From assembly GCA_031291995.1 (NCBI GenBank), contig JARLHZ010000010.1, positions 37,155-101,154 on the forward strand: a stretch of DNA of 64,000 bases. The letters run 5' to 3'. This DNA comes from Candidatus Doudnabacteria bacterium (GTDB lineage Bacteria; Patescibacteriota; Doudnabacteria; UBA920). Positions within the stretch are counted from its first letter, which is position 1, and the number at the start of each line of letters is the position of its first letter. Shown here one piece after another: positions 8,364 through 63,664 of this stretch. The notes below the pieces were generated by a model. That model worked only from the letters and a program-made list of their open reading frames with translations. It had not been told where the DNA came from and searched no databases. The position numbers and the translations under genes were made by a program.

Positions 8364-10301
8364 CTATTTTGGGACTTCTTTATAATCCGCGTCAACAGTG
8401 CCGGAATTACCCCCGGAAGTTCCGCCCGAATTACCGCTTTCCGCCGACGGATTGGCGCCCGCCTGCCCGCCAGGTCCGGAACCCGCGGCAGGATTTGCCG
8501 GCCCGCCCGAGCCTTCGTACATAGCCGCGCCGACTTTTTGGACAGCCTCGCTCAGCGCGTCCATGGTTTTTTTAATCGCCTCAATGTCATCCTTGTCTTT
8601 TACTTCTTTCAGGGCTTTAATTTTTTCTTCCACAGACAATTTGTCTTCGGCTTTGAGCTTTGAGCCGGTCGCGGACCCCGAGCCTGTCGAGGCGGCATCC
8701 TTTAAAGTTTTTTCGGAAACGCTAATGAGCGTATCGGCCTGGTTCCGCATGTCCACGGTTTCTTTGCGCTTTCTGTCTTCGGCCGCGTGCGCTTCGGCTT
8801 CTTTTTTCATCCGTTCGACATCGTCTTTGGACAAATTGGAAGAACCCTGAATGGTAATTTTATTTTCCTTGCCCGTAGCCTTGTCTTTTCCTTTAACAGT
8901 CAAAATGCCGTTGGCATCAATATCAAACGTCACTTCAACCTGCGGTACGCCGCGGGGCGCCGGCGGAATGCCGTCCAAAATAAACTGGCCCAAAGATTTG
9001 TTATCCTTGGCAAATTCGCGTTCGCCCTGCAGAACGTGAACTTCCACCGAAGTTTGGTTATCGGCCGCGGTGGAAAATACTTGGGACTTGGAGGTCGGGA
9101 TGGTGGTATTTCGATCAATCAGCGCGGTACGAATTCCCCCCAAAGTTTCCAGACCCAGCGTCAAGGGAGTTACGTCCAGCAGCAAAATTTCCTTGCCCTG
9201 CACGTCCCCGCCCAAAATGCCGGCTTGAATAGCCGCGCCTTTGGCCACGGCTTCCATCGGGTCTATGCCGCCTTCCACCTGCTTGCCGACGTAAGTTTCC
9301 ACGAACTGTTTGACCGCGGGCATCCGGGTCGGGCCGCCGATTAAAATAATTTTGTCTATATTCTGCGGCGTCAGCTTGGCATCGTTTAATGCCTGCTCCA
9401 CGGGGTGGCGCATTTTTTCCACAATCGGCCGGATTAATTCTTCAAGTTTGGCCCGGGTAATCTTAATTTGCAAATGTTTCGGCCCGTTAGCATCCGCGGT
9501 TATAAAAGGAAGGTTAATATCCGTCTCCATGGTCGTCGACAATTCTATTTTGGCTTTTTCGGCCGCTTCCCTAACGCGGTTCATGGCCATCTTGTCATTG
9601 TTTAAATCCACGCCGCTGGAAGACTTAAAATCGTTTACAATGTAATCGATAAGCGCTTTGTCCATGTCCTTGCCGCCCAATTGCGTGTCCCCGGAGGTGG
9701 ATTTAACCTCAAAAGTAGCCTGATTATCTACCTCTGAAAAATCCATAATCGTTACGTCCAAAGTTCCGCCTCCCAGGTCGAACACGAGAATTTTTTGGTC
9801 TTTTGACGATGATTTATCCAAGCCATAAGCAAAAGCCGCGGCCGTGGGTTCGTTTATGACGCGAACCACTTCCAACCCCGCGATTTCCCCGGCGTTCTTG
9901 GTCGCTTGCCGCTGCGCGTCGTCAAAATAAGCCGGCACGGTAATTACGGCTTTAGCCACCGGTTCACCCAAAAAAGTTTCCGCGTCTTTCTTGATCTTCT
10001 GTAAAATAAACGCGCTGATTTGTTCCGGGGTGTATTCTTTGCCGTTAATCTGGTATTTAAAATTTGTACCCATCTTTCTTTTGGCTTCAAAGATGGTTCC
10101 CTCGGGGTTTGTGACCGCCTGGCGTCTGGCCGGCTCACCGACCAAAAGCTGGCCTTCTTTGGTAAAAGCCACATAAGATGGAAAAGCTTTCCCCGCGGCG
10201 GATGTGCCTTCCGCGGCCGGAATAATCACCGGCGTCCCGCCCTGCATAACACTGGCGGCGGAGTTGCTCGTCCCCAAATCTATCCCTATAATTTTTGGCA
10301 T
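8364..10301 (-). CDS. dnaK: Chaperone DnaK (Hsp70)
   Basis: [23 protein letters not shown], full Hsp70 signature; G/A/P-rich C-terminal tail. Confidence 0.97.
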
Positions 10302-20837: not shown

Positions 20838-21608
20838 TTATTGGTTGTTCAGCAAATCCGGACGGCGTTTTTTTGTGCGCTTCATTGCCTCATCCATTCT
20901 CCATTTTTCTATATTCGCATGGTGCCCGGATAATAAAACTTTCGGCACCTTCAAAATTTTTCTTCGCTTTGTAGGGACGGGTCTAGACCCGCCCCTACCC
21001 AGGGCAGGAATCATCAAAATTTCCGGTTTTGTATACTGCGGAAATTCCAGGCTATTTTCGGAAAAAGATTCTTTATCTGCGGATTCATCCTTGCCCAAAA
21101 TCCCTGACCTCAATCTCATTACCGCTTCGCTGATAACCAACGCGGGCAATTCTCCGCCCATTAAAACATAATCCCCGATGGAGATTTCTTCGTCTACAAA
21201 ACTTCTCACCCGCTCATCAAAGCCCTCGTATCTACCGCAGACAAAAATTAACTCATTAAATTTTGCCAATCGCTGGGCCATTTTTTGGTCAAACTTTTGG
21301 CCCTGGGGTGTTAACAAAATTATACGTGCCTGTGTAGGGGCGGATATTATCCGCCCCCTATGATCAGAGACCGACTTTATCGCTTTATATAAAATATCCG
21401 CGCGTAACACCATACCCACACCGCCGCCATATGGCCGGTCGTCAACAACCTGCCTCTCACCCAAACCAAACGAACGTAAGTTTATCGGCTGAATTTGTAA
21501 AAGCCCTAACTTAATAGCTCTTTTTACAATTCCAAAAGACTCCACAAAATTTTCTATAAATGAGGGAAATAACGTAATAATTTTAATCGATAACTTTTTA
21601 GACCTCAT
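20838..21608 (-). CDS. trmD: tRNA (guanine37-N1)-methyltransferase TrmD carrying two in-frame palindromic insertions
   Basis: TrmD motifs ([13 protein letters not shown]; [13 protein letters not shown]); extra segments [20 protein letters not shown] and IISAPTQAR coincide with the palindromes at 20971-20998 and 21333-21360. Confidence 0.85.
20971..20998. repeat. 28-bp palindrome gtagggacgggtctagacccgcccctac (in-frame in trmD)
   Basis: Near-identical perfect palindrome gtagggacaggtctagacctgtccctac at 54214-54242. Confidence 0.8.
21333..21360. repeat. Palindrome tgtaggggcggatattatccgcccccta (in-frame in trmD)
   Basis: Read directly. Confidence 0.7.
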
Positions 21609-25799: not shown

Positions 25800-25935
25800 A
25801 TGCCAAATAGCAAATACCAAATTACAAATCAATTCCAAATGTAAAATTTAAAATCAGTTTGCGATAAATGTTGGAAATTTGATATTTGGACATTTGGATT
25901 TTGTTTGATATTTGAAATTTGATACTTGAAATTTA
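25800..25935. repeat. AT-rich simple-repeat tract (atttgatatttgga / aatttgatacttgaaattt units)
   Basis: Same repeat family at 46720-46860 and, in shorter form, inside murF at 57505-57530. Confidence 0.6.
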
Positions 25936-26625
25936 ATACTGATTTTTCTTAAGCGCGTCTTCGGCCGCCGACAGTTCCGCTTCCTGTTTGCTCGGACCGG
26001 TTCCCCGCCCGACCTCTGTTTGCCCGACGTAAGCGGCCACCACAAAAACTTTGTTATGGTCCGGACCCGTTTCGCTGACCACGCCGTAAGTCGGCGTCAC
26101 GCCGTTTTTTTCCTGAATGATTTCCTGTAATTTACTCTTCGGATCAACATAACTGCCGCCGGCAATAATACTTGGCAGTTCGACCAAAACTTCGTTGATA
26201 ATAAATTGTTCGGCCGCTTTATAACCGGCATCCAGGTAGACCGCGCCAATGACCGCTTCAATGCAGTTGGCCAAAATTACCTGCCTGGCCCGGCCGGTAT
26301 CCTTGGCCTCGCCGCGGGACATTTGTAAAAAATTTTCAAAGCCCAATTTCTTGGAAATATCCGAGAGCATTTTATAATTCACCAGGGCGCTGCGAAAATT
26401 GGTCAACTCACCCTCGGGATGGGGATAATTTTTATAGAGATATTCGGTCGCCGCCAGCTCCAAAACGGCGTCGCCCAAAAACTCCAGACGCTCGTTATGG
26501 GGCAAACTAAATTTACGGTTCTCATTCAAATAGGACCGGTGGGTAAATGCCGAGACATAAAGGTCAAGATTGTTGACTTTTACTCCCAAAATTTTTTCTA
26601 GCTCCTGTTTATCAAGTGACGACAT
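25933..26625 (-). CDS. rnc: Ribonuclease III
   Basis: RNase III signature ERLEFLGDAVLELAATEYLY plus a C-terminal dsRBD. Confidence 0.93.
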   Translation of the reverse strand: MSSLDKQELEKILGVKVNNLDLYVSAFTHRSYLNENRKFSLPHNERLEFLGDAVLELAATEYLYKNYPHPEGELTNFRSALVNYKMLSDISKKLGFENFLQMSRGEAKDTGRARQVILANCIEAVIGAVYLDAGYKAAEQFIINEVLVELPSIIAGGSYVDPKSKLQEIIQEKNGVTPTYGVVSETGPDHNKVFVVAAYVGQTEVGRGTGPSKQEAELSAAEDALKKNQY

Positions 26626-26725: not shown

Positions 26726-26859
26726 GTGCCCCTCGACTACACCACGCTGCGCGTGATTGCGCTCGGGACACTCGACTCGCTCTGCACTTCTTCGTTGGTT
26801 GAGGCCTCCCAAAGGCCGAAACCACGAGCGAGCTTCGGCGTTAGCCGAAGCGAGTCGAG
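26726..26859. repeat. Structured repeat element V, immediately 3' of tRNA-Val (second copy 59769-59888, 3' of tRNA-Ala)
   Basis: About 130 bp alignable with 59769-59888; two internal hairpins differ by compensatory substitutions (cttcggcg-ttag-ccgaag vs ctttgacg-aaag-tcaaag; ggcctcccaaaggcc vs gccctttagggc). Confidence 0.7.
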
Positions 26860-26934
26860 TGGTGGGCGGCGAAGGAATCGGACCTTCGACCCTTTCTACG
26901 TCAAAGAAATGCTCTACCACTGAGCTAGCCGCCC
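26860..26934 (-). tRNA. tRNA-Val (anticodon GAC)
   Basis: Manual cloverleaf: acceptor gggcggc/gccgccc, D-arm gctc-agtggtag-gagc, anticodon loop ttGACgt, encoded CCA. Confidence 0.8.
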
Positions 26935-30055: not shown

Positions 30056-30164
30056 AATGAACGATAATAACTCATTAAATCGCTTTAATTGGCAAATCTA
30101 TTTTAGCAGTTTAAGGCTTATGTTGGCAAAACAAAATGCCTCCACCCTAATTGGACAACGGCAA

Positions 30165-30365
30165 AATAAAGGTTCCCCGCCGCAAGCAGCGGGGTATTAC
30201 TGCAAGGAACAGCTGCATCTTCGCGGCAAGCCGCGAGGTATTGAACCTTTCTTTCCGCCAAAGGCGGATCCGCCTCCGGCGGAAGCTCCCTGCCTGGCGG
30301 CAGGCAGGCCTCGGCTCGCTTGTCCTTTGAAAGACAAAGGACAGACTCGCCTACGTCGCGAATAA
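30165..30365. repeat. Structured repeat element L between the pilin-like array and tRNA-Leu (second copy 59608-59760)
   Basis: Shared blocks aataaaggttccccgccgcaagc..ggggtattactgcaa and cctcggctcgct ... ctacgtcgc(g/t)aataaaa; internal hairpins differ (gtcctttgaaagacaaaggac vs cggccataaatggccg); minus-strand end forms a terminator-like GC hairpin plus U-run; carries an extra 28-bp GGATCC palindrome absent from the other copy. Confidence 0.65.
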
Positions 30366-30374
30366 AAACTACAA

Positions 30375-31268
30375 TTATTGCCCTTTGGTAATAACGCTGC
30401 TGATTACGGTAATTATAGCGTACGATAATAGCACGACAATGACGCCGATAATGGAATTAACAATGGCTTTTTTGCCTTTTTCCGACTGCTCCTCGTTGCC
30501 CGCGGAAGTAATATACCAAAAGCCGCCGACAATAAGCATTAGCACGGCAATAACTCCGGCCAGCGCCAACAGCAAAGTAATTATCTTAGTCAATAAATCT
30601 GTCAGGCTATTGCTGGCGCAAATTCCCCCGTTGCAAGCCGAACTGTTCGGCGGCAGGCATAAACCGTTAACCGAAACTAAACCAGCCGCGCAGTTACCTT
30701 GTGTCTGGCCAGTTCCGTTAGTACTTGCGCCGGTAAGCGAGATGCCCATTGCCGTTGCCGTATCAGAGCCGACGATTCCGTCATTGGTCAGGTTGTGTGA
30801 TTGCTGCCAAAGCTGAATTCCCTTGATTGTTTCTGAGTCGCAAGTTCCGCTGTAAGTGACATTGCTGTCAACACCCTGCACGATTCCCTGAATTTGCTTA
30901 ATAATATTTGGGTCGGTAGTGCCGCAAGACCCGCCGCCCTTCGGCGACCCAATAGCGTATTGAGAAGAATTGTTGTTAGCCGGCAATCCACATTTACCGC
31001 TGTTACATACCAGTCCGCTTTTGGAAGTACCGCAATCCGCGCTGGTGGAACAAGGCGTAGTATTCGTTACCGTCTCACAGGTGTTGCCGTTTGTTTTATC
31101 ACAAAATAAGCCGGTAGCGCAATCGGTATTAAAAGTGCATCCGTCCCCCAGCTGCGCGTCGGCAAAAACAAAAAAAGGGTAAGCTAAAAATACGCCAACA
31201 ATTAAGACGACTAATGCCGAAATATTTAAATACCTCAATGAAAACCCTTTTGCATGCGTCCCGTTCAT
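30375..31268 (-). CDS. T4SS-pilin-like (TrbC/VirB2-like) secreted protein with a Cys-rich N-terminal domain, member 1 of a five-gene array
   Basis: Signal peptide; C-terminal conserved block IVGGFWYITSAGNEEQSEKGKKAIVNSIIGVIVVLLSYAIITVI (two TM helices flanking an SAGNEE..EKGK loop) shared by all five paralogs; 12 Cys in the N-terminal domain. Confidence 0.6.
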   Translation of the reverse strand: MNGTHAKGFSLRYLNISALVVLIVGVFLAYPFFVFADAQLGDGCTFNTDCATGLFCDKTNGNTCETVTNTTPCSTSADCGTSKSGLVCNSGKCGLPANNNSSQYAIGSPKGGGSCGTTDPNIIKQIQGIVQGVDSNVTYSGTCDSETIKGIQLWQQSHNLTNDGIVGSDTATAMGISLTGASTNGTGQTQGNCAAGLVSVNGLCLPPNSSACNGGICASNSLTDLLTKIITLLLALAGVIAVLMLIVGGFWYITSAGNEEQSEKGKKAIVNSIIGVIVVLLSYAIITVISSVITKGQ

Positions 31269-31311
31269 TTTGTGTCTATTTTAATTTTCCGGATTCGAAC
31301 AGAAGGAAAAA

Positions 31312-31731
31312 TTAATAACCCGAAGCCACGTAATTGGAAATTACGTTGATAATTACGAATGATAAAACAATTATGACTATGCCAATAATGGCGTTAACCA
31401 CGTTTTGTTTGCCCTTTTCCGCGGCTTCTTCGTTGCCGGCGGAAGTAATATATTGGTAACCGCCGACAATGACAAACACAATGGCGATAGCCCCGGCAAT
31501 ATACAGCAGCATGGTTATTACCAAATAAATTAAACCGTTCTGGCCGGTCAGATGCGTCGCGCCGCCAATACCCATACCTCCCGTGCCAGGAAATAAACCA
31601 CCAACGCCGTTCAGGCCGCTTCCAAACGCGTCACCGCCCGTGCTTTGGGCCGATACTAATCGCGGCATCGCCAAAATGCTTCCAAAAACAACCGCCGCCT
31701 GCCAATATTTGAGTTGTAAATATTTTTTCAT
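31312..31731 (-). CDS. T4SS-pilin-like small secreted protein, member 2
   Basis: Signal peptide plus C-terminal IVGGYQYITSAGNEEAAEKGKQNVVNAIIGIVIIVLSFVIINV block. Confidence 0.6.
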   Translation of the reverse strand: MKKYLQLKYWQAAVVFGSILAMPRLVSAQSTGGDAFGSGLNGVGGLFPGTGGMGIGGATHLTGQNGLIYLVITMLLYIAGAIAIVFVIVGGYQYITSAGNEEAAEKGKQNVVNAIIGIVIIVLSFVIINVISNYVASGY

Positions 31732-31822
31732 TGTATTTTAAATTTTTTATCAAATCCGAAAACAAAAACAATTTGTTCTCGGATTTGATCCCAAACAATA
31801 CGCTTGGGACCAAAATTTCAAA

Positions 31823-32230
31823 TTACGGCGCGCTAGTCGAATTCGGACTGGCCACCAGGCTGGAAATAACGTTTATAATCACGTAGGACAAGATTATAAT
31901 CACGATACCGATAATTGCGTTAATGGCCGTACCTTTGCCTTTTTCCGCGGTTTCTTCGTTACCGGCTGAGGTAATGTACCAGAAGCCGCCAATAATCAGG
32001 AACAACACGGCAATACCGAAGGCAATGCCCAAGAGCCAGTCAATTACCGTGCGAATAAAACCGTTAATGCTGGTAGATTGACAGTTTAAACCCGTTGACG
32101 GGTCGCACTGAAAATTGGCATTTAACTGAGCGCTTGCCAACACCGGAGCGGAAATTAACATAACGGACAACATAACTTCCGCAATTTTAATCAGTTTTTC
32201 TTTTTTTATTATTTGTTTCAAGCTGTTCAC
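31823..32230 (-). CDS. T4SS-pilin-like small secreted protein, member 3
   Basis: C-terminal IIGGFWYITSAGNEETAEKGKGTAINAIIGIVIIILSYVIINV block. Confidence 0.6.
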   Translation of the reverse strand: MNSLKQIIKKEKLIKIAEVMLSVMLISAPVLASAQLNANFQCDPSTGLNCQSTSINGFIRTVIDWLLGIAFGIAVLFLIIGGFWYITSAGNEETAEKGKGTAINAIIGIVIIILSYVIINVISSLVASPNSTSAP

Positions 32231-32244
32231 CCCCTCTCTGTACC

Positions 32245-32300
32245 TTTCCCTCTCCCTCCTTGCCCGCCGAAGCCTTTTGGCAAAGGCGGGTGGGAGAGGA
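32245..32300. repeat. GC-rich nested-hairpin element (cctctccctcc ... gcccgccgaagccttttggcaaaggcgggtgggagagg) between pilin-like genes 3 and 4
   Basis: Read directly; an extended -10 (tgGTATAAT) lies just upstream on the minus strand at about 32330-32345. Confidence 0.55.
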
Positions 32301-32370
32301 CAAAGGTGAGGGATTAGGATTAATTTTTAATTTGACTTTATTATACCACAATAGTTACCTTGTTTCCATG

Positions 32371-32814
32371 CTAACTCCCATGCAACAGTAAATTTGAAAT
32401 AATTCTGACGATAACGGTGGCTAAAATTACCACCACCAAACCGATAACTGAGTTAATGATTATTTTTTTACCTTTTTCCGACTGCTCCTCGTTGCCGGCC
32501 GAAGTCACATAAAAGAATCCGCCAATTATTAAAAAGACCGCCGTGACCACGCCAACCAGGCCCATTGCCCAATAAAATACCGCCAAAACCAGGCCGCTAG
32601 CCGAGCAAAAATAAGGCAGGCTGCTGCTGGCTACCACATTGGCGCCGGAACTCAATCCGAATTGGCTCATAAAATTGGCACATCGCTGGTCAGAAGAAAT
32701 TACCGGCGCCTGATTTTGCGCCCCGGCCACAGCCGGCACCAACGCCAAAAATGACAAGTTGAATAGAACCAGCAGTGAGGCGATTTTCGCGAACTTGATA
32801 AATTTAATTCCCAT
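32371..32814 (-). CDS. T4SS-pilin-like small secreted protein, member 4
   Basis: C-terminal IIGGFFYVTSAGNEEQSEKGKKIIINSVIGLVVVILATVIVRI block. Confidence 0.6.
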   Translation of the reverse strand: MGIKFIKFAKIASLLVLFNLSFLALVPAVAGAQNQAPVISSDQRCANFMSQFGLSSGANVVASSSLPYFCSASGLVLAVFYWAMGLVGVVTAVFLIIGGFFYVTSAGNEEQSEKGKKIIINSVIGLVVVILATVIVRIISNLLLHGS

Positions 32815-54213: not shown

Positions 54214-54242
54214 GTAGGGACAGGTCTAGACCTGTCCCTACG
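54214..54242. repeat. Perfect 28-bp palindrome gtagggacaggtctagacctgtccctac (intergenic, rnhB-ddl)
   Basis: Same family as the trmD in-frame copy at 20971-20998. Confidence 0.8.
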
Positions 54243-54248
54243 AAAAAA

Positions 54249-55433
54249 TTATTGTCGAATTTTTTTGCCGCCTAACTTCGCTCCGTTCAATTGCTTTAGC
54301 ACGCTGCTTTCAAATGTAAAAGTTATTTCCCGCTTCTCTTTGAATTTTTCTTCCGCGAATTTTATCAGCTCTTTCAGTAATTCATCCAGCTCCAATCCAC
54401 TTGCCTTCCACAAGTGGTGGTACAATGTTCCCGGCATCGGATTAACCTCGTTGGCAAAAAATTGTTTGCTCTGTTTGTCAAACAAAAAATCCACGCGAGC
54501 AATTCCGCTGCACCCTAAAGCTTTATAAACTTTTAGCGCGGCATTTTGTAAGGCGGATGTGGTCGCCTCATCGAGTCTGGCGGGGATAATCAGGTTGTTA
54601 ACTGCTTTACCGGTCTGGGCTCCGCCGTCGCTGATATATTTGTCTTCAAAATTAAACAAGTCATTATTAAAAACCGATTCCTGCAATAAAGAGGCGCGCG
54701 GCTTTTTATTTCCAGTAATACAGCAAGTGACGTCCATTAAATTTTCCACAGCCTGTTCCACCAAGACCTTCTCGTCATAATGCAAAGCAACTTCAATCTT
54801 TTGTTCCAGGTCTTTGTCGTCTTTGGCTTTTCCAATGCCAATGGAAGAACCCAAATGAACCGGCTTGACAAACAATGGATACTTTCCTAATTCTCTAATT
54901 TTCTCTTTTACTAATTCTCTGTTTTCTTCCCAGTCTTGCTTATAAAAATAAACAAACTTCGTCGTCGGAATGCCCGCGTCCTTCATGACGATTTTGGTCA
55001 ATGCCTTGTCCATAGCCACGACCGAGGCTGGCACACCACAACCGACATAAGGAATACCGAGCATCTCAAACATGCCCTGAATGGTTCCGTCTTCCCCGTA
55101 AGTTCCATGAAACGCGGGAAAGGCCATATCAATTGTAATTGATTTTCCGGCAAACCCCTTGCGCTTAAACACCATCTTCCCCACCGACTCCTGCATGTCC
55201 AAATAGTATTCAAAATATTTTTTGTTGTCTTCCGGTTTATGGTTAGGGTCGGTAAACAATTTTAAGTTTCCCAAATCCTCGTCCAGCATCCACTTGCCGG
55301 TCTTGGTTATGTAAACCGGTGTTACCGGATAGCCCAAACCTTTCAGACCCGCGATGATGAGTTGGGCGGTAATAATAGATATATCATGCTCCGTACTGCC
55401 GGAGCCAAAAAATACGCCAATGTTTTTTGTCAT
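54249..55433 (-). CDS. ddl: D-alanine--D-alanine ligase
   Basis: IGVFFGSGSTEHDISIITAQ N-terminal domain, ATP-grasp motifs; start at MTKNIG. Confidence 0.9.
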   Translation of the reverse strand: MTKNIGVFFGSGSTEHDISIITAQLIIAGLKGLGYPVTPVYITKTGKWMLDEDLGNLKLFTDPNHKPEDNKKYFEYYLDMQESVGKMVFKRKGFAGKSITIDMAFPAFHGTYGEDGTIQGMFEMLGIPYVGCGVPASVVAMDKALTKIVMKDAGIPTTKFVYFYKQDWEENRELVKEKIRELGKYPLFVKPVHLGSSIGIGKAKDDKDLEQKIEVALHYDEKVLVEQAVENLMDVTCCITGNKKPRASLLQESVFNNDLFNFEDKYISDGGAQTGKAVNNLIIPARLDEATTSALQNAALKVYKALGCSGIARVDFLFDKQSKQFFANEVNPMPGTLYHHLWKASGLELDELLKELIKFAEEKFKEKREITFTFESSVLKQLNGAKLGGKKIRQ

Positions 55434-55448
55434 AATTTTTTTCTGTCG

Positions 55449-55491
55449 GTAGCGTGCCCATTTATGGGCGTTCCCGGATCGCCGATAAATC
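55449..55491. repeat. Hairpin gtagcgtgcc ... ggcacgctac enclosing gccgataaatcggc; a 22-mer is shared with 10420-10441 upstream of dnaK
   Basis: Exact 22-mer gccgataaatcggcacgctaca occurs at both sites. Confidence 0.65.
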
Positions 55492-55503
55492 GGCACGCTA
55501 CAG

Positions 55504-56658: not shown

Positions 56659-56815
56659 TCTTATTTAATCTTGGTCAATTATTTATACAGGATTTCAGAT
56701 ATTTTTGACTGCCGATGAAATGCTAACTACAGTCAAAAATTCTGGAATGACAGAATTTCCTGTCCCCTCAATTTTGTCAATTTTATTTAATCTTGGTCAA
56801 TTTTGGTCAATTCTA
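56645..56815. promoter_or_regulatory. Two direct copies (56647-56680, 56770-56805) of caattttgtcaat(c/t)ttatttaatcttggtcaatt between murF and alr
   Basis: TTGTCAAT / TTGGTCAAT units, same family as 7110-7160 and 37388-37450. Confidence 0.5.
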
Positions 56816-58396
56816 AATGTACTGGTCTCCCCAGTCGTTCTGAAACATTACCACGTCGCCGGGTTTTAAAATATTTTTCAAGCCCGCGTGGGCTTCTAGT
56901 GCGCTGTCAAACCAAATAATTTGCGGTTTTTTGACTCCAACCACCTCCCCCGCTGACGCGGGTACTCCTCCTTGAAAAGGAGGAGAGCTCGACGTTTTTT
57001 CGGACAACCGCGGAGCCTCCCCTCCTGGCAAGGAGGGGTGTCCCGCAAAGCGGGACGGGGAGGTCTGAATTCCTTCTTCAACAAACCCCGTCACGCTATT
57101 TCTTATAAAAATTGCAACGTCCGCCACGCCGGCAAGCTCCCGGCCAATTTGCCGATGAACTTCGGCGGAAGAGTTCCCCATTTCCACCAAACCGGGCGTA
57201 ATATATATTTTCCGCCGGTTTGTGAATCGCGACAAAACCTTTATTGCCTCCCCCACCCCGTCCGGATTGCCGTTGTACGCGTCATCTATAACTAATACCT
57301 CGCCCGCCGATTTAATCGGCTGCAGCCGGTGCTCCACGGGCTTTATATTTGTAATACCCCGTTTCAGCTCATCATCCGACATCCCCAAATTTTTGCCGAT
57401 CTTGACCGCCGCGTCCACATCACCCAGCGCGTACTCTCCCAATAAGTTTACTTCAATTTTACCAAACGATTCCAATTCCGCTTCCCAGCAAAGTTTTTCG
57501 GTATTAAATTTTTGATATTTGATATTTGATATTTGTCCGCCAAAGGCGGATCCGCCTTTGGCGGAATATTTTTCCACCTTGTGGTCCGGCCAAATAAATT
57601 TTTTATAATTATCCATTACTCTTTTATCATCGGCGTTTAACAGCACCACAGCTCCGGGCTCGGAGCCGCTGACAATTTCAAAAATCGTGGACGCCACCGT
57701 TTCCATATTTTTCATTCGTTCCAAATGCGATTCGTTTATGCCGGTTACCACGGCAATATTAGGCTTTGCTATATCGCAGATCTCCCCAATGTCCCCGGCG
57801 TAATGTTCCCCCATTTCTACTATTAATACCTGAGTTTCATCAGTCACCTTATTTAAAATCCACCGCGCGATTCCCACCGGCGTATTTACACTGTCCGGAG
57901 TGGCTAATACCTTAAACCTAATACCTAATACCTTCCCCAGTACTTCCTTCATCGTAGTCTTGCCGTAACTGCCCGCTACCCCGATTATTTTTAAATCAGG
58001 CGGCATATTACCGATTTTAGATTTGGCGCGGATCGCCAATCTTTTTTTTGCCAAACTATCAAACGGTTTAAGCAGCAATAATACAACGCTAAATAACAAA
58101 AAATAAAAAGGCGACAAAATTATCGCCGCGATAACCGCGGCAACAAAAAAATTGCCGATTGAACCGGTTAAAATTACAGTTATTAAGCCGCTAAAAATTA
58201 TGACAAAACCGTGCAAAGCCACCGCCATAAGCATCATTGCCTTGGCTTTTACGCTCCACACCAATTCCTTCCGCTGTTCCCCTCTCGGCCATGGCCCCTT
58301 TTTAAATAACAACTTCCAATACCTGCCCAGCTCATAGTTTTCCAGCTGGAGCAGGTACAATTGATACCTTATAAATTTCGGAACAATAAAATCCAT
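56813..58396 (-). CDS. murF: Mur ligase family UDP-MurNAc-pentapeptide synthetase (MurF-like) with an N-terminal membrane extension and two in-frame repeat-element insertions
   Basis: Mur ligase P-loop GSYGKTT and middle/C-terminal domains; upstream of alr-ddl; about 100-aa N-terminal segment with 2-3 TM helices; inserts at 56944-57070 and 57505-57564. Confidence 0.75.
   Translation of the reverse strand: MDFIVPKFIRYQLYLLQLENYELGRYWKLLFKKGPWPRGEQRKELVWSVKAKAMMLMAVALHGFVIIFSGLITVILTGSIGNFFVAAVIAAIILSPFYFLLFSVVLLLLKPFDSLAKKRLAIRAKSKIGNMPPDLKIIGVAGSYGKTTMKEVLGKVLGIRFKVLATPDSVNTPVGIARWILNKVTDETQVLIVEMGEHYAGDIGEICDIAKPNIAVVTGINESHLERMKNMETVASTIFEIVSGSEPGAVVLLNADDKRVMDNYKKFIWPDHKVEKYSAKGGSAFGGQISNIKYQKFNTEKLCWEAELESFGKIEVNLLGEYALGDVDAAVKIGKNLGMSDDELKRGITNIKPVEHRLQPIKSAGEVLVIDDAYNGNPDGVGEAIKVLSRFTNRRKIYITPGLVEMGNSSAEVHRQIGRELAGVADVAIFIRNSVTGFVEEGIQTSPSRFAGHPSLPGGEAPRLSEKTSSSPPFQGGVPASAGEVVGVKKPQIIWFDSALEAHAGLKNILKPGDVVMFQNDWGDQYI
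56944..57070. repeat. Composite hairpin element (ctcctccttgaaaaggaggag; cctcccctcctggcaaggaggggtg; gtcccgcaaagcgggac) in-frame in murF
   Basis: Encodes about 39 extra aa (SPSRFAGHPSLPGGEAPRLSEKTSSSPPFQGGVPASAGE). Confidence 0.7.
57505..57564. repeat. (tgatatt)x3-4 microsatellite plus the 28-bp palindrome ccgccaaaggcggatccgcctttggcgg, in-frame in murF
   Basis: The same palindrome (one variant) sits inside repeat L at 30255-30282. Confidence 0.7.
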
Positions 58397-58453: not shown

Positions 58454-59209
58454 TTAGGTTATAAATTCTCCCACCGCTTTTGCGAATTCTTCCGGCTCAT
58501 CCGAAAAGCTGAAATGGCCGGCATGTTTGAGAATTAGGAATTTGGAGTTTGGAATTAGGAATTTCATAAGTTCCCCGAATTTTGGAGGCGTGTCTTTGTC
58601 ATTTTTCCCGTTTATAATTAGCGTCGGCACGGTAATTTTTTTCATGTCTTCCGATAAATCTTCGCTTGTAATATTGACAAAAGTTTTTTGCAGTTCCGGC
58701 GTAGCTAGGTAGTCTTCCGCCCCGATTGATTTATAAATTTTTTTTCGCAATCCGTGCATAAACTCCGGCTTAAAAAAAGGCTTTACAATTTTTGCGCCAA
58801 TCTTCATCATATTCTTTTTATCCGATGGCATGGCAAACCCGGCGCTGTCCGCTAAAATTAGCTTGCTGATTAATTCCGGATGTCCAGCCGCCAGTTTAAT
58901 TCCAATGCGGCCGCCGAACGAATGGCCGATGATTATTACATTAGTAAGTTCCAATTTTTTAATGAACCCCGCCACAACTTCGGCATAACCCCCTACTGTC
59001 ATCGCATGCATTGGGATTTGCGACCCACCAAACCCGGGCAAATCCAGGGCAAACAAATGACAATTGACAATTGACAATTTACTTAGCACATTTTGCCAAA
59101 TTTCTTTATTGGAACGCCAACCATGCAAAAAAAGCAAGGTTTTGCCGGCATCCCCCGATGTTTCCTGGTAACTAATTAAATAATTATTTACGATAACCTG
59201 CTTAGTCAT
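58454..59209 (-). CDS. Alpha/beta-fold hydrolase
   Basis: HGW ... nucleophile elbow GHSFGG. Confidence 0.75.
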   Translation of the reverse strand: MTKQVIVNNYLISYQETSGDAGKTLLFLHGWRSNKEIWQNVLSKLSIVNCHLFALDLPGFGGSQIPMHAMTVGGYAEVVAGFIKKLELTNVIIIGHSFGGRIGIKLAAGHPELISKLILADSAGFAMPSDKKNMMKIGAKIVKPFFKPEFMHGLRKKIYKSIGAEDYLATPELQKTFVNITSEDLSEDMKKITVPTLIINGKNDKDTPPKFGELMKFLIPNSKFLILKHAGHFSFSDEPEEFAKAVGEFIT

Positions 59210-59270
59210 GTTTAAATAATAGCATTACCTAGCACAAGATAAAACCCCAGCATTATGCTGGGGTTTTATC

Positions 59271-59344
59271 TGGTCGGGCTGCTGGGAATTGAACCCAGTC
59301 TACACGCACCCGAAGCGTGCGTACGACCGGCATACTCCAGCCCG
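59271..59344 (-). tRNA. tRNA-Pro (anticodon CGG)
   Basis: Acceptor cgggctg/cagcccg, anticodon stem cacgc/gcgtg with loop ttCGGgt, T-arm ctggg-ttcaatt-cccag, CCA encoded. Confidence 0.7.
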
Positions 59345-59607
59345 ATTGTTATTGTGGAAGGATAAAAATAACCCTGATTAGGGCTTTAATCCTTGATTAG
59401 ATTTTCTTTTTTGATTCTTGACCATTTTTTGACTTGGATTTCTCTTTGCCTTGCTTGTATTAAACTAAGGAAAGTTTCTGCGTAGACAATTTCCCCGCCA
59501 CCGTGTTGTTTTGTCCATTGAGCGCCTTTGCCTGAGTTATGCCGAAATTCTCATTGAGGCGGAAAATTTGTGCATCCAGTGTACTAAGTTCCGTCGTTAC
59601 AACTAAA

Positions 59608-59760
59608 AAAATAAAGGTTCCCCGCCGCAAGCAATGGGGTATTACTGCAAAGACATCGCTACAATTGCGCGGCGAGCCGCGCGGTATTGAACCTGTATTA
59701 GCTCCTCGGCTCGCTCGGCCATAAATGGCCGGACTCGCTCTACGTCGCTAATAAAACACA
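59608..59760. repeat. Structured repeat element P (copy of L at 30165-30365, lacking the GGATCC palindrome insert)
   Basis: See L; contiguous with element A. Confidence 0.65.
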
Positions 59761-59768
59761 CAGTTGTT

Positions 59769-59888
59769 TGCCCCTCGACTCGGTTGCGCTCGCTCGGGAC
59801 ACTCGATTCGCTACAAAGCTGGTGGTCGGTCGAAGCCCTTTAGGGCGTAGACCACGAGCGAGCTTTGACGAAAGTCAAAGCGAGTCGA
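59769..59888. repeat. Structured repeat element A (copy of V), immediately 3' of tRNA-Ala(GGC)
   Basis: See V. Confidence 0.7.
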
Positions 59889-59962
59889 GTGGTGGACCTG
59901 GAGGGAATCGAACCCTCGACTAATCCATGCCATGGATCCGTATTACCATTATACTACAGGCC
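59889..59962 (-). tRNA. tRNA-Ala (anticodon GGC)
   Basis: Acceptor gggcctg with G3:U70, D-arm gtat-aatggta-atac, anticodon loop atGGCat, CCA encoded. Confidence 0.8.
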
Positions 59963-60053
59963 CCTGCTCCGCCAAGGCTTCGCAGGGCAAGCCCCGCGTA
60001 ACCTCGACATTTGGTTTGACACTAAGATATATTACTCGATTTCTCTAAAATTA

Positions 60054-63424: not shown

Positions 63425-63664
63425 ATGTTTTATTTCTACATTTTAAAATGCAAAGACGGCACACTGTACTCGGGCAGCACGAATGATCTTAAAAAACGCG
63501 AGGCGGTGCACAACTCCGGCAAAGGGTCTAAATATGTTATTGCCCATGGCGGCGGAAAAATTGTTTATCATGAAAAATTCAGAAAGTGGGGGAAGGCGCT
63601 AAGTCGGGAGGCTCAAGTAAAAAAATTATCTCGCAGAAAAAAGCTGGAGCTCATTAAAAAATGA
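63425..63664 (+). CDS. GIY-YIG nuclease-superfamily small protein (UPF0213-like)
   Basis: FYFYILKCKDGTLYSGSTNDLKKREAVHNSGKGSKY ... matches the GIY-YIG core. Confidence 0.75.
   Translation: MFYFYILKCKDGTLYSGSTNDLKKREAVHNSGKGSKYVIAHGGGKIVYHEKFRKWGKALSREAQVKKLSRRKKLELIKK

Follow-up and report, generated by a model that had tools for sequence, protein, structure and literature searches.

The Rickettsia palindromic elements (RPEs) are palindromic repeats of about 150 bp, grouped in about ten families and reported from Rickettsia (PMC10969869), that lie in frame in unrelated and often essential genes, whose products tolerate the added peptide (PMC10969869; PMC3733652). Repetitive extragenic palindromes (REPs) are GC-rich palindromes of 20 to 40 nt, often arranged as inverted doublets, that carry a GTAG or CGTC end tag, are abundant and for the most part extragenic, and frequently have a link with a REP-flanked RAYT gene; some are intragenic, notably in replication and repair genes (PMC3733652). 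[quoted passage not shown] Here we describe a 30-nt palindromic unit that lies in frame in the murF gene of a Candidatus Doudnabacteria genome, within a 64,000-nt stretch of contig JARLHZ010000010.1 (referred to below as the window), together with its copies in many other uncultured bacteria.

In its behavior the unit comes closest to RPEs and to intragenic REPs, and it fails the defining features of both. Like RPEs, it is palindromic and occurs in frame in unrelated protein-coding genes; it differs in having a fifth of their length, a twin hairpin with four free loop bases, and hosts in the Candidate Phyla Radiation (CPR), Omnitrophota, the Planctomycetes-Verrucomicrobia-Chlamydiae (PVC) group, and others, a separation that is made on length, structure, and hosts. 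With REPs and REPINs it shares a short length, a high GC content, the capacity to form stem-loops, and a spread within genomes that is inferred for both. It is, however, untagged, ends in TCCGCC and GGCGGA between flanking TTY and RAA triplets, lies in long open frames in 79 of the 125 copies listed, and is modest in copy number, with two copies in the window; no RAYT gene occurs among the 50 window open reading frames (ORFs) scanned with Pfam, and the sequence is common to many labeled phyla. MITEs such as Correia/NEMIS, ERIC, and RUP resemble it as small non-autonomous mobile repeats that are sometimes intragenic and in frame (PMC10969869), whereas the unit has only 30 nt in two abutting 15-nt halves, with no internal region and no target duplication. 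The unit is probably in-frame palindromic selfish DNA, and the surprising part is that a single 30-nt sequence is common to many uncultured phyla.

The unit in murF and the heptamer array beside it

Three features of the window define the murF site:
56813..58396, minus strand: murF, UDP-MurNAc-tripeptide--D-Ala-D-Ala ligase, 527 aa, host gene of the palindrome
57536..57565, no strand assigned: murF copy of the unit, a perfect 30-nt palindrome, TCCGCCAAAGGCGGATCCGCCTTTGGCGGA
57508..57535, minus strand: heptanucleotide array, on the coding strand CAAATAT three times and then CAAAAAT, encoding QISNIKYQK

A preliminary description of this DNA had reported a 28-bp palindrome in frame in murF. Its position and the ORF translation bear out the palindrome and the frame; the length does not stand, as ccgccaaaggcggatccgcctttggcgg at 57537-57564 becomes a perfect 30-nt palindrome at 57536-57565 once the flanking T and A are added, and the inserted unit includes these two bases. 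The 15-nt arms are 100% complementary, and the unit consists of two abutting 15-nt hairpin units, TCCGCC-NNA-GGCGGA/TCCGCC-TNN-GGCGGA, the second approximately the reverse complement of the first. The encoded peptide, SAKGGSAFGG, occupies residues 278 to 287, and the translation of the ORF, in which palindrome and array both lie, contains YSAKGGSAFGGQISNIKYQKFNT. As single-stranded DNA the murF copy forms a 13-bp hairpin of -16.9 kcal/mol (z = -6.6). Searching the window with up to three mismatches, we found exactly two copies, this one and one at 30255-30282, where 100 shuffles gave an expectation of 0.00. Rfam returned only tRNAs and chance matches, both at the gathering score over the whole window and at E values up to 10 over 59200-60000.

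The window MurF is 100% identical to a protein from a Candidatus Doudnabacteria metagenome-assembled genome (MAG), has 1440 homologues at E <= 0.001 that carry Mur ligase domains, and is matched by the solved MurF structures 3zl8 and 1gg4 (E = 1e-29 and 2e-28). In a MAFFT alignment of 120 MurF orthologues, the ten residues SAKGGSAFGG are the sole extra residues at the palindrome site, where the protein alignment shows the 10-residue gap alone, and the orthologues differ there by the exact presence or absence of ten codons, SAxGGSAxGG. The site is filled in P0001, P0002, P0005, and P0011 and holds a decayed copy in P0035; close relatives are empty, and the carriers are dispersed over the neighbor-joining MurF tree. 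In nucleotides, the filled junctions read AAATAT-unit-CAAATA in the window, GAATTT-unit-AAGATT in P0002, AAGTTT-unit-CGAGTT in P0005, and AGATTT-unit-AAGATT in P0011, and the empty ones read AGATAT/GAGATT in P0007 and AAATTT/CAAATT in P0004. The inserted sequence is invariably TCCGCC-NNN-GGCGGATCCGCC-NNN-GGCGGA, 30 nt long, and the target is not duplicated. The filled P0002 and the empty P0007 are sisters whose murF genes are 94.1% identical in nucleotides apart from the single 30-nt gap; gain or loss of a site takes place within about 6% nucleotide divergence. Only P0005 and P0010 have the unit at a second MurF site, which follows KVLSRF (a filled instance is located at position 9385 of locus L123). 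At the first site, P0106 has a different 30-nt insert whose outer six bases are those of the unit, and the murF gene of P0025 holds a lone 15-nt unit in another reading frame. In an AlphaFold (AF2) model of the window MurF, with a mean predicted local distance difference test score (pLDDT) of 88.6 and a predicted template modeling score (pTM) of 0.84, the insert is a low-confidence loop between strands 273-277 and 292-298, and the block 281-290 has a mean pLDDT of 58.

The heptamer array adjoining the palindrome (Tandem Repeats Finder: period 7, TTTGATA, 3.6 copies, 100% matches, 57511-57535) had been taken in the preliminary description for a microsatellite inserted along with it. We had to abandon that view: palindrome-free orthologues (P0004, P0007, and others) have a heptamer array in the same place, encoding QISNFKFQ or EISDLRLR, and the window peptide QISNIKYQKF aligns with QISNFKFQKF, EISDLRLRNF, and KVSSIKYKVF of insert-free orthologues. 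The array-encoded peptide is beta strand 292-298 in the AlphaFold model. Since palindrome-free orthologues have it too, the array is native murF sequence, and it is a recurrent landing place for the palindrome. An origin of heptamer arrays by 7-bp target duplication is rejected for MurF, as unit counts are equal in filled and empty genes, and the weak flank similarity of palindrome copies (z = 5) is the period-7 register of the arrays, not a duplication.

Heptanucleotide arrays are common in this genome, genes included; others in the window are at 281, 22680, 23153, 25798, 25877-25938, 26639/26673, 46831, 57904, 58526, 59053, and 61858. The murF array is retained in 9 of the 9 orthologues read as DNA (the window and loci L121-L124 and L127-L130) with units that differ by lineage (CAAATAT, CAAATTT, AAGATTN, CGAGTTT, and AATTTTC), which points to concerted turnover of a coding microsatellite. 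Period-7 repeats are also enriched about 5-fold in the flanks of palindrome copies elsewhere. The window murF carries a second, larger insertion at 56939-57061 (residues 446-486), which is made of four GC hairpins, encodes a peptide containing FAGHPSLPGGEAPRLSEKTSSSPPFQGGVPASAGEVV, and is disordered in the model (pLDDT < 50); orthologues have other repeat-derived peptides at that site (VIARSEATKQS, RHSEGVQPTEES, and TTPSRQGGTPLL), making it a hot spot for several repeat families.

Exact gain and loss and multiplication within genomes

Outside murF, the window offers a filled and an empty version of the same site in two paralogous repeats:
30163..30372, minus strand: repeat L, stacked GC hairpins that separate a pilin-like gene from tRNA-Leu; family D20; paralogue of P
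30254..30283, no strand assigned: the other window copy of the unit (30 nt), with loops AAA and TCC, inside the intergenic repeat L
30288..30308, no strand assigned: second hairpin found only in L in the L/P alignment, CCCTGCCTGGCGGCAGGCAGG, 21 nt
59608..59770, minus strand: repeat P, L paralogue without the palindrome; empty site GTATT/AGCTCC
59392..59616, minus strand: GIY-YIG pseudogene with two in-frame stops, directly downstream of P

Both L and P are minus-strand stacks of GC hairpins. Their affine-gap alignment yields an L-only block at 30254-30283 that is exactly TCCGCCAAAGGCGGATCCGCCTCCGGCGGA, the 30-nt unit; the gap boundaries are those of the palindrome, and no others were seen. Further L-only blocks measure 21, 7, and 8 nt, and the third L hairpin is unlike its counterpart in P in sequence. 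A one-variant copy in L that is missing from P had been proposed from the letters; presence in L and absence from P are as proposed, and the copy (30255-30282) differs from that in murF at two bases, not one, its second loop having TCC in place of TTT. Its fold is a pair of 6-bp hairpins (-12.5 kcal/mol, z = -4.0).

The Ddl protein provides another site, after GIGKV, where three of seven Doudnabacteria-type loci have the unit (L121 at 13433, L122 at 13416, and L123 at 11807) and the window ddl gene (54249-55496) is empty. Filled and empty DNA was compared at four sites (in MurF, in Ddl, and in L/P), and no target-site duplication was found: the unit is gained and lost as an exact 30-nt block. 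It also multiplies within genomes, new copies inheriting the loop bases. Identical loops occur in 9 of 22 same-genome pairs of the copies listed (41%) versus 5.3% of pairs between genomes, and 0 of 20000 permutations reached the observed count; copies therefore descend from one another within genomes. The exact gap between L and P, the exact 10-codon differences in MurF, and the many further copies described below uphold the preliminary claim that the palindrome is an independently inserting unit.

Distribution, anatomy, and host genes of the family

A scan of one genome per species with the pattern CCGCCNNNGGCGGATCCGCCNNNGGCGG gave at least 120 loci and at least 125 copies. Taxon labels are the depositors' own, and the phylum counts rest on them. 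The loci among the matches listed fall under the following labels:
Patescibacteria/CPR: 62 loci
Omnitrophota: 10 loci
PVC (Kiritimatiellae, Verrucomicrobiota, Lentisphaerae, and Planctomycetes): 12 loci
'Gammaproteobacteria' (third-party assemblies): 12 loci
Ignavibacteria/Bacteroidota: 4 loci
Chloroflexota: 2 loci
Firmicutes: 2 loci
Deltaproteobacteria: 1 locus
Firestonebacteria, Margulisbacteria, and Auribacterota: 3 loci
unclassified: 12 loci

The matches listed include many further copies in unrelated genes and genomes; the 30-nt unit recurs, nearly unchanged in sequence, within essential genes of uncultured bacteria under more than ten phylum labels, in carrier loci whose GC content spans 30 to 70%. 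Within the copies listed, to which the counts in this and the next paragraph refer except where loci or genes are named, 26 of the 30 bases are fixed and the four variable bases, all in the loops (N-R-A in loop 1 and T-Y-N in loop 2), vary freely, and the ends are TCCGCC and GGCGGA in 125 of 125. There are 53 loop combinations, or 42 once strand orientations are merged. The loops are complementary in 24 of 125 copies versus 16.8 expected under loop independence, and with so few complementary loops the common structure is a pair of 6-bp hairpins whose loops have 3 nt. T nearly always precedes CCGCC and A nearly always follows GGCGG, as read from the flanks without tabulation; relative to the 30-mer, T stands at -2 in 87% and A at +2 in 79%. 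Since the flank bases do not covary in pairs, and the inverted repeat extends no further than base composition gives, this is a TTY/RAA preference rather than a longer palindrome, and the unit lies mostly between the T-rich triplet TTY and RAA. Across about 1 Mb of fetched loci, 126 copies are intact at all 24 scored positions and 15 have one to five mismatches, and shuffled sequence gave no matches to the unit. Dimers outnumber monomers 136 to 36. Of the copies outside the selection made by the search pattern, about ten are intact and about eight decayed by a hand count.

Open frames of at least 150 codons contain 79 of the copies (63%); of these, 67 read SAxGGSAxGG (frame 0), 5 PPxADPPxAE, and 7 RRxRIRLxRK. 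Roughly one copy in three falls outside the long open frames, the L copy among them. Pfam named 19 of 20 host genes scanned, namely, those for DnaG, AspS (two genomes, different sites), AdoHcyase, PheT (two copies in one gene), UvrB, Pgk, a class I tRNA synthetase, FolD, UvrC, AtpD, CysS, DnaJ, an enzyme of the EPSP synthase family, GH57, TsaD, RpoC, a type I restriction R subunit, and an ArsA-like ATPase. In coding-strand orientation K, E, R, G, or Q stands at the first variable residue and S (43), F (14), or L (5) at the second. The inner variable pair, read on the sense strand, forms 33 A:C mismatches versus 13 G:U pairs, an excess that fits selection on a translated, exposed peptide and is the opposite of RNA-hairpin selection; selection on an mRNA hairpin was rejected on this count. 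A role as an intrinsic terminator was likewise rejected, given T before and A after the hairpin on both strands and the intragenic position of most copies.

Larger repeats reuse the hairpin unit, as seen at L003 4480-4600, L006 4569-4752 and 6390-6572, L053, and L005 330-600. An intergenic composite repeat of a Kiritimatiellae MAG, about 185 nt long, has the palindrome as one module next to GTCATTCCGAGCG-type repeats, and a repeat of about 70 nt in a Patescibacteria MAG includes a single 15-nt unit.

Probable mobility, candidate enzymes, and rival explanations

We consider it likely that the palindrome in murF is a copy of a very short, non-autonomous, mobile twin-hairpin DNA element. Movement of such an element would need a trans-acting, sequence-specific protein able to recognize either the 26 fixed bases or the twin hairpin, for which an HUH/RAYT-like single-strand transposase or a structure-specific nuclease would be the most natural candidate. 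At 30 nt, an insertion never shifts the reading frame. Copies in genes would survive almost solely in the frame that encodes Ser-Ala-x-Gly-Gly twice, as a small flexible peptide that may be tolerated in surface loops and, in MurF, at a beta-hairpin turn, and selection would then act on the translated peptide (favoring K, E, or R as its first variable residue and Ser as the other) and not on RNA hairpin stability. The element itself probably has no host function. Single-strand transposition of the IS200/IS605 type, in which hairpins mark the ends and insertion and excision are exact, free of duplication, and next to a short specific motif, would fit both the exact, duplication-free gain and loss and the TTY/RAA preference; however, the flank preference of the unit is symmetric, and no Y1 transposase is linked to it in the loci scanned. 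A much broader proposal, that these palindromes form a pan-bacterial class of 30-nt twin-hairpin mobile elements which actively colonize essential genes in frame in CPR, Omnitrophota, PVC, Ignavibacteria, and other uncultured phyla by means of a widely shared, sequence-specific enzyme, possibly one of the small tRNA-linked GIY-YIG nucleases, with exact and duplication-free insertion and excision at TTY/RAA, is one that we advance tentatively and with more doubt than confidence.

Several observations weigh against a mobile element. Pfam recognized no transposase or other mobilizing gene among the 50 window ORFs, which are ordinary CPR housekeeping genes except for a small GIY-YIG protein and RNA methyltransferases. 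A phmmer search of the open frames in the approximately 1 Mb of loci with IS200 and IS608 TnpA queries found one IS200-type gene, in L069, and the end hairpins of that transposase are unrelated to the unit, so that a RAYT/IS200 link found no support in these loci. Viral contigs (IMG/VR) gave 2 matches, plasmids (PLSDB) 3 weak ones, and phage records (INPHARED) none; phages or plasmids as carriers were rejected on these counts, and this near-absence leaves the route across phyla unexplained. The two Chloroflexota matches sit in DNA of 69 to 70% GC and could be due to chance, and all labels are as deposited. Within the sister genomes L121 and L122, whose ddl genes are 93.2% identical, the orthologous Ddl copies show three differences among the four loop bases and none among the 26 others, where the codon-position rates of the gene lead to an expectation of about 0.2 loop differences (p of about 0.001 by simple arithmetic). 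This is not what simple neutral decay after insertion predicts; either the loops have a much higher mutation rate than the stems, or hot spots see their resident copies replaced. The recurrent occupancy of the same sites could also reflect ancestral presence followed by repeated exact loss. Known short palindromic families such as REPs and RPEs are usually restricted to a species or genus. The identity of 26 bases over more than ten labeled phyla is unlike that, and it could mean that the unit has a function or that its enzyme is universal.

The last possibility leads to the reading of the 30-mer as a functional DNA signal under selection, a binding or cleavage site or an uptake or recombination signal that is needed all along the chromosome. 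The invariance of 26 of 30 bases over many labeled phyla with free loops, the confinement of all three L121/L122 ddl differences to the loops, the presence of the genome-maintenance genes for DnaG, UvrB, and UvrC among the hosts, and the two-fold symmetry of the consensus, as for a dimeric DNA-binding protein, would all suit such a signal. Its density, however, is low and uneven (2 copies per 64 kb here, and in another Doudnabacteria MAG 2 among the matches listed, on two contigs, for a total of 1.57 Mb), close relatives are filled or empty without compensation, no conserved neighboring gene was seen beside the unit, and to our knowledge no shared protein reads such a site across these phyla; we regard a signal as unlikely, though as the strongest of the rivals considered here. 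A role at the protein level, in which (SAxGG)2 is a Gly/Ser/Ala linker module selected for what it does in proteins, would account for the strong frame bias (67 of 79 copies listed) and the clear residue preferences on the sense strand. It is nonetheless very improbable: third codon positions in the stems are invariant while the variable codons change at first and second positions, which is the opposite of protein-level constraint, and the third of the listed copies outside long open frames includes the L copy, one in a pseudo-tRNA anticodon loop, and those in intergenic composites.

Still less credit can be given to two further explanations. The preliminary description had linked the GATC/GGATCC core to a methylase or restriction specificity and had pointed to a cognate methyltransferase as a check. 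The center is GGATCC in the copies that the search pattern selected, and GATC is somewhat underrepresented in the window (103 versus 158 expected), but GGATCC is neither avoided nor enriched there (12 versus 10.9 expected), so that avoidance of a restriction site was rejected; Pfam found neither a DNA methyltransferase nor a restriction enzyme among the 50 window ORFs scanned, conservation spans 26 bases, far past a 6-bp site, and variant centers such as GGCGGgTCCGCC and GGCGGAcCCGCC occur. A tie to a restriction-modification or Dam-type system is thus hardly credible. Local origin of each palindrome, by template switching or slippage during replication at hairpin-prone sequence with convergence of the copies, has in its favor that the murF copy is a perfect palindrome and that the heptamer arrays beside some copies are slippage-prone; template switching is described, for miRNA genes, as able to make perfect hairpins in one step (PMC10710096). 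The same 26 bases, however, recur in 125 unrelated contexts listed, empty sites lack a source sequence, shuffled sequence yields no matches, and loops are shared within genomes. The shared sequence already contradicts this origin, and we give it next to no weight.

A possible mobilizer within the window is a family of small GIY-YIG genes, of which one copy is intact:
63425-63661, plus strand: small GIY-YIG gene, PF01541, E = 8e-17

Beside it and the pseudogene (59392-59616, minus strand), the window holds one apparent remnant (about 30165-30185), the approximately 17 nt at the end of L that resemble the start of a GIY-YIG gene. The pseudogene has 78% identity (tblastn) to the GIY-YIG protein of L121, and since the homologous locus in L121 has an intact GIY-YIG gene and no P, P itself appears, from the two sequences compared by eye, to be an insertion of roughly 150 to 165 nt before the gene. 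Such genes, which encode 79 to 96 aa with PF01541 and are multi-copy, also occur in L121 (1524-1775 and 6532-6816), L122, L123, L128, L027, L117, and L003; tRNA genes adjoin most of 13 examined. At several loci, the GIY-YIG gene follows tRNA-Ala across a conserved hairpin-bearing spacer of about 110 to 190 nt (CTCGACTCG...CGAGTCGAG). In L027 (7380-7850) and L117 (6540-7000, minus strand) it has a duplicated 5' half of tRNA-Ser(UGA) on one side and the complete tRNA-Ser on the other, and the anticodon loop of the duplicated half is the exact position of the palindrome (CTTG-unit-AAAACC); L117 has an additional hairpin in the D-arm of that half. NCBIfam has no model that matches these proteins, and the genes look like a mobile gene family of their own.

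That these small, tRNA-linked, multi-copy nucleases move the unit, with the twin hairpin as substrate, is suggested by the L copy about 70 nt upstream of the apparent remnant, by P directly before the pseudogene, by palindromes at most 250 nt upstream of 3 of 6 GIY-YIG genes of the listed loci (L003, L027, and L117), and by the presence of intact, pseudogene, and apparent-remnant forms in one window. No such hairpin, however, is near 9 of the 13 genes examined, L027 and L117 may represent a single ancestral event, and GIY-YIG flanks are among the few noncoding stretches of these compact genomes, where hairpins may simply accumulate; moreover, we know of no biochemical precedent for a GIY-YIG protein moving such hairpins. 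We therefore treat the association only as a lead, and an improbable one, with odds lying between those of a DNA signal and those of a protein linker.

Two further families invite comparison. The GC clusters of fungal mitochondria (as in yeast var1) and the PstI palindromes of Neurospora are short, GC-rich palindromic insertions in AT-richer genomes, some of them optional, some in coding sequence, and some centered on a 6-bp restriction-type site. They are organellar and species-restricted, the yeast clusters are described with short target repeats, and we know of none that has the sequence of the unit. DNA uptake sequences (DUS/USS) are short motifs, often in inverted pairs and in preferred coding frames, that are reportedly enriched in genome-maintenance genes; they have a core of about 10 to 12 nt, occur roughly once per kb, and are family-specific. 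The unit differs from them in its 30 nt, in its density of at most a few per 100 kb, and in being common to the labeled phyla. A literature search that included the core GGCGGATCCGCC found neither the unit nor such inserts in CPR or related phyla described, though its coverage was incomplete and an earlier description is possible; the matches to the core were cloning primers.

The window contains other repeats. A different perfect palindrome, GTAGGGACAGGTCTAGACCTGTCCCTAC, of 28 nt with GTAG ends and a TCTAGA center, occurs at 54214-54241 and 20971-20998, one copy being intergenic between the RNase HII gene and ddl and a variant lying in frame in trmD. A metagenome scan gave 55 exact matches, 49 of them identical and mostly in short open frames; as it is nearly invariant and behaves like an ordinary GTAG-tagged REP, we rejected it as a sister class of the 30-nt unit. 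The region 30375-32814 holds four tandem paralogous genes with the type IV secretion pilin domain PF18895, which explain the direct repeat family D1 (113 nt). A 77-nt repeat at 79% identity is common to the 3' trailers of tRNA-Val and tRNA-Ala (26814-26890 and 59844-59920); it includes a hairpin (GAGCGAGCTTCGGCG...CGCCGAAGCGAGTCGAG) and matches no Rfam family.

If the palindrome is indeed a mobile element, many of the proteins annotated in uncultured bacteria contain ten inserted residues that are selfish in origin, among them RNA polymerase beta-prime, ATP synthase beta, primase, tRNA synthetases, and MurF, and alignments, phylogenies, and structure predictions of these lineages would be affected. 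Exact, footprint-free movement together with 26 fixed bases would imply an enzyme of unusual specificity, of interest as a tool. A single sequence common to phyla that otherwise share little may serve as a tracer of DNA exchange in groundwater and sediment communities, and its presence or absence between near-identical genomes may mark recent changes in the genomes of organisms that resist cultivation.

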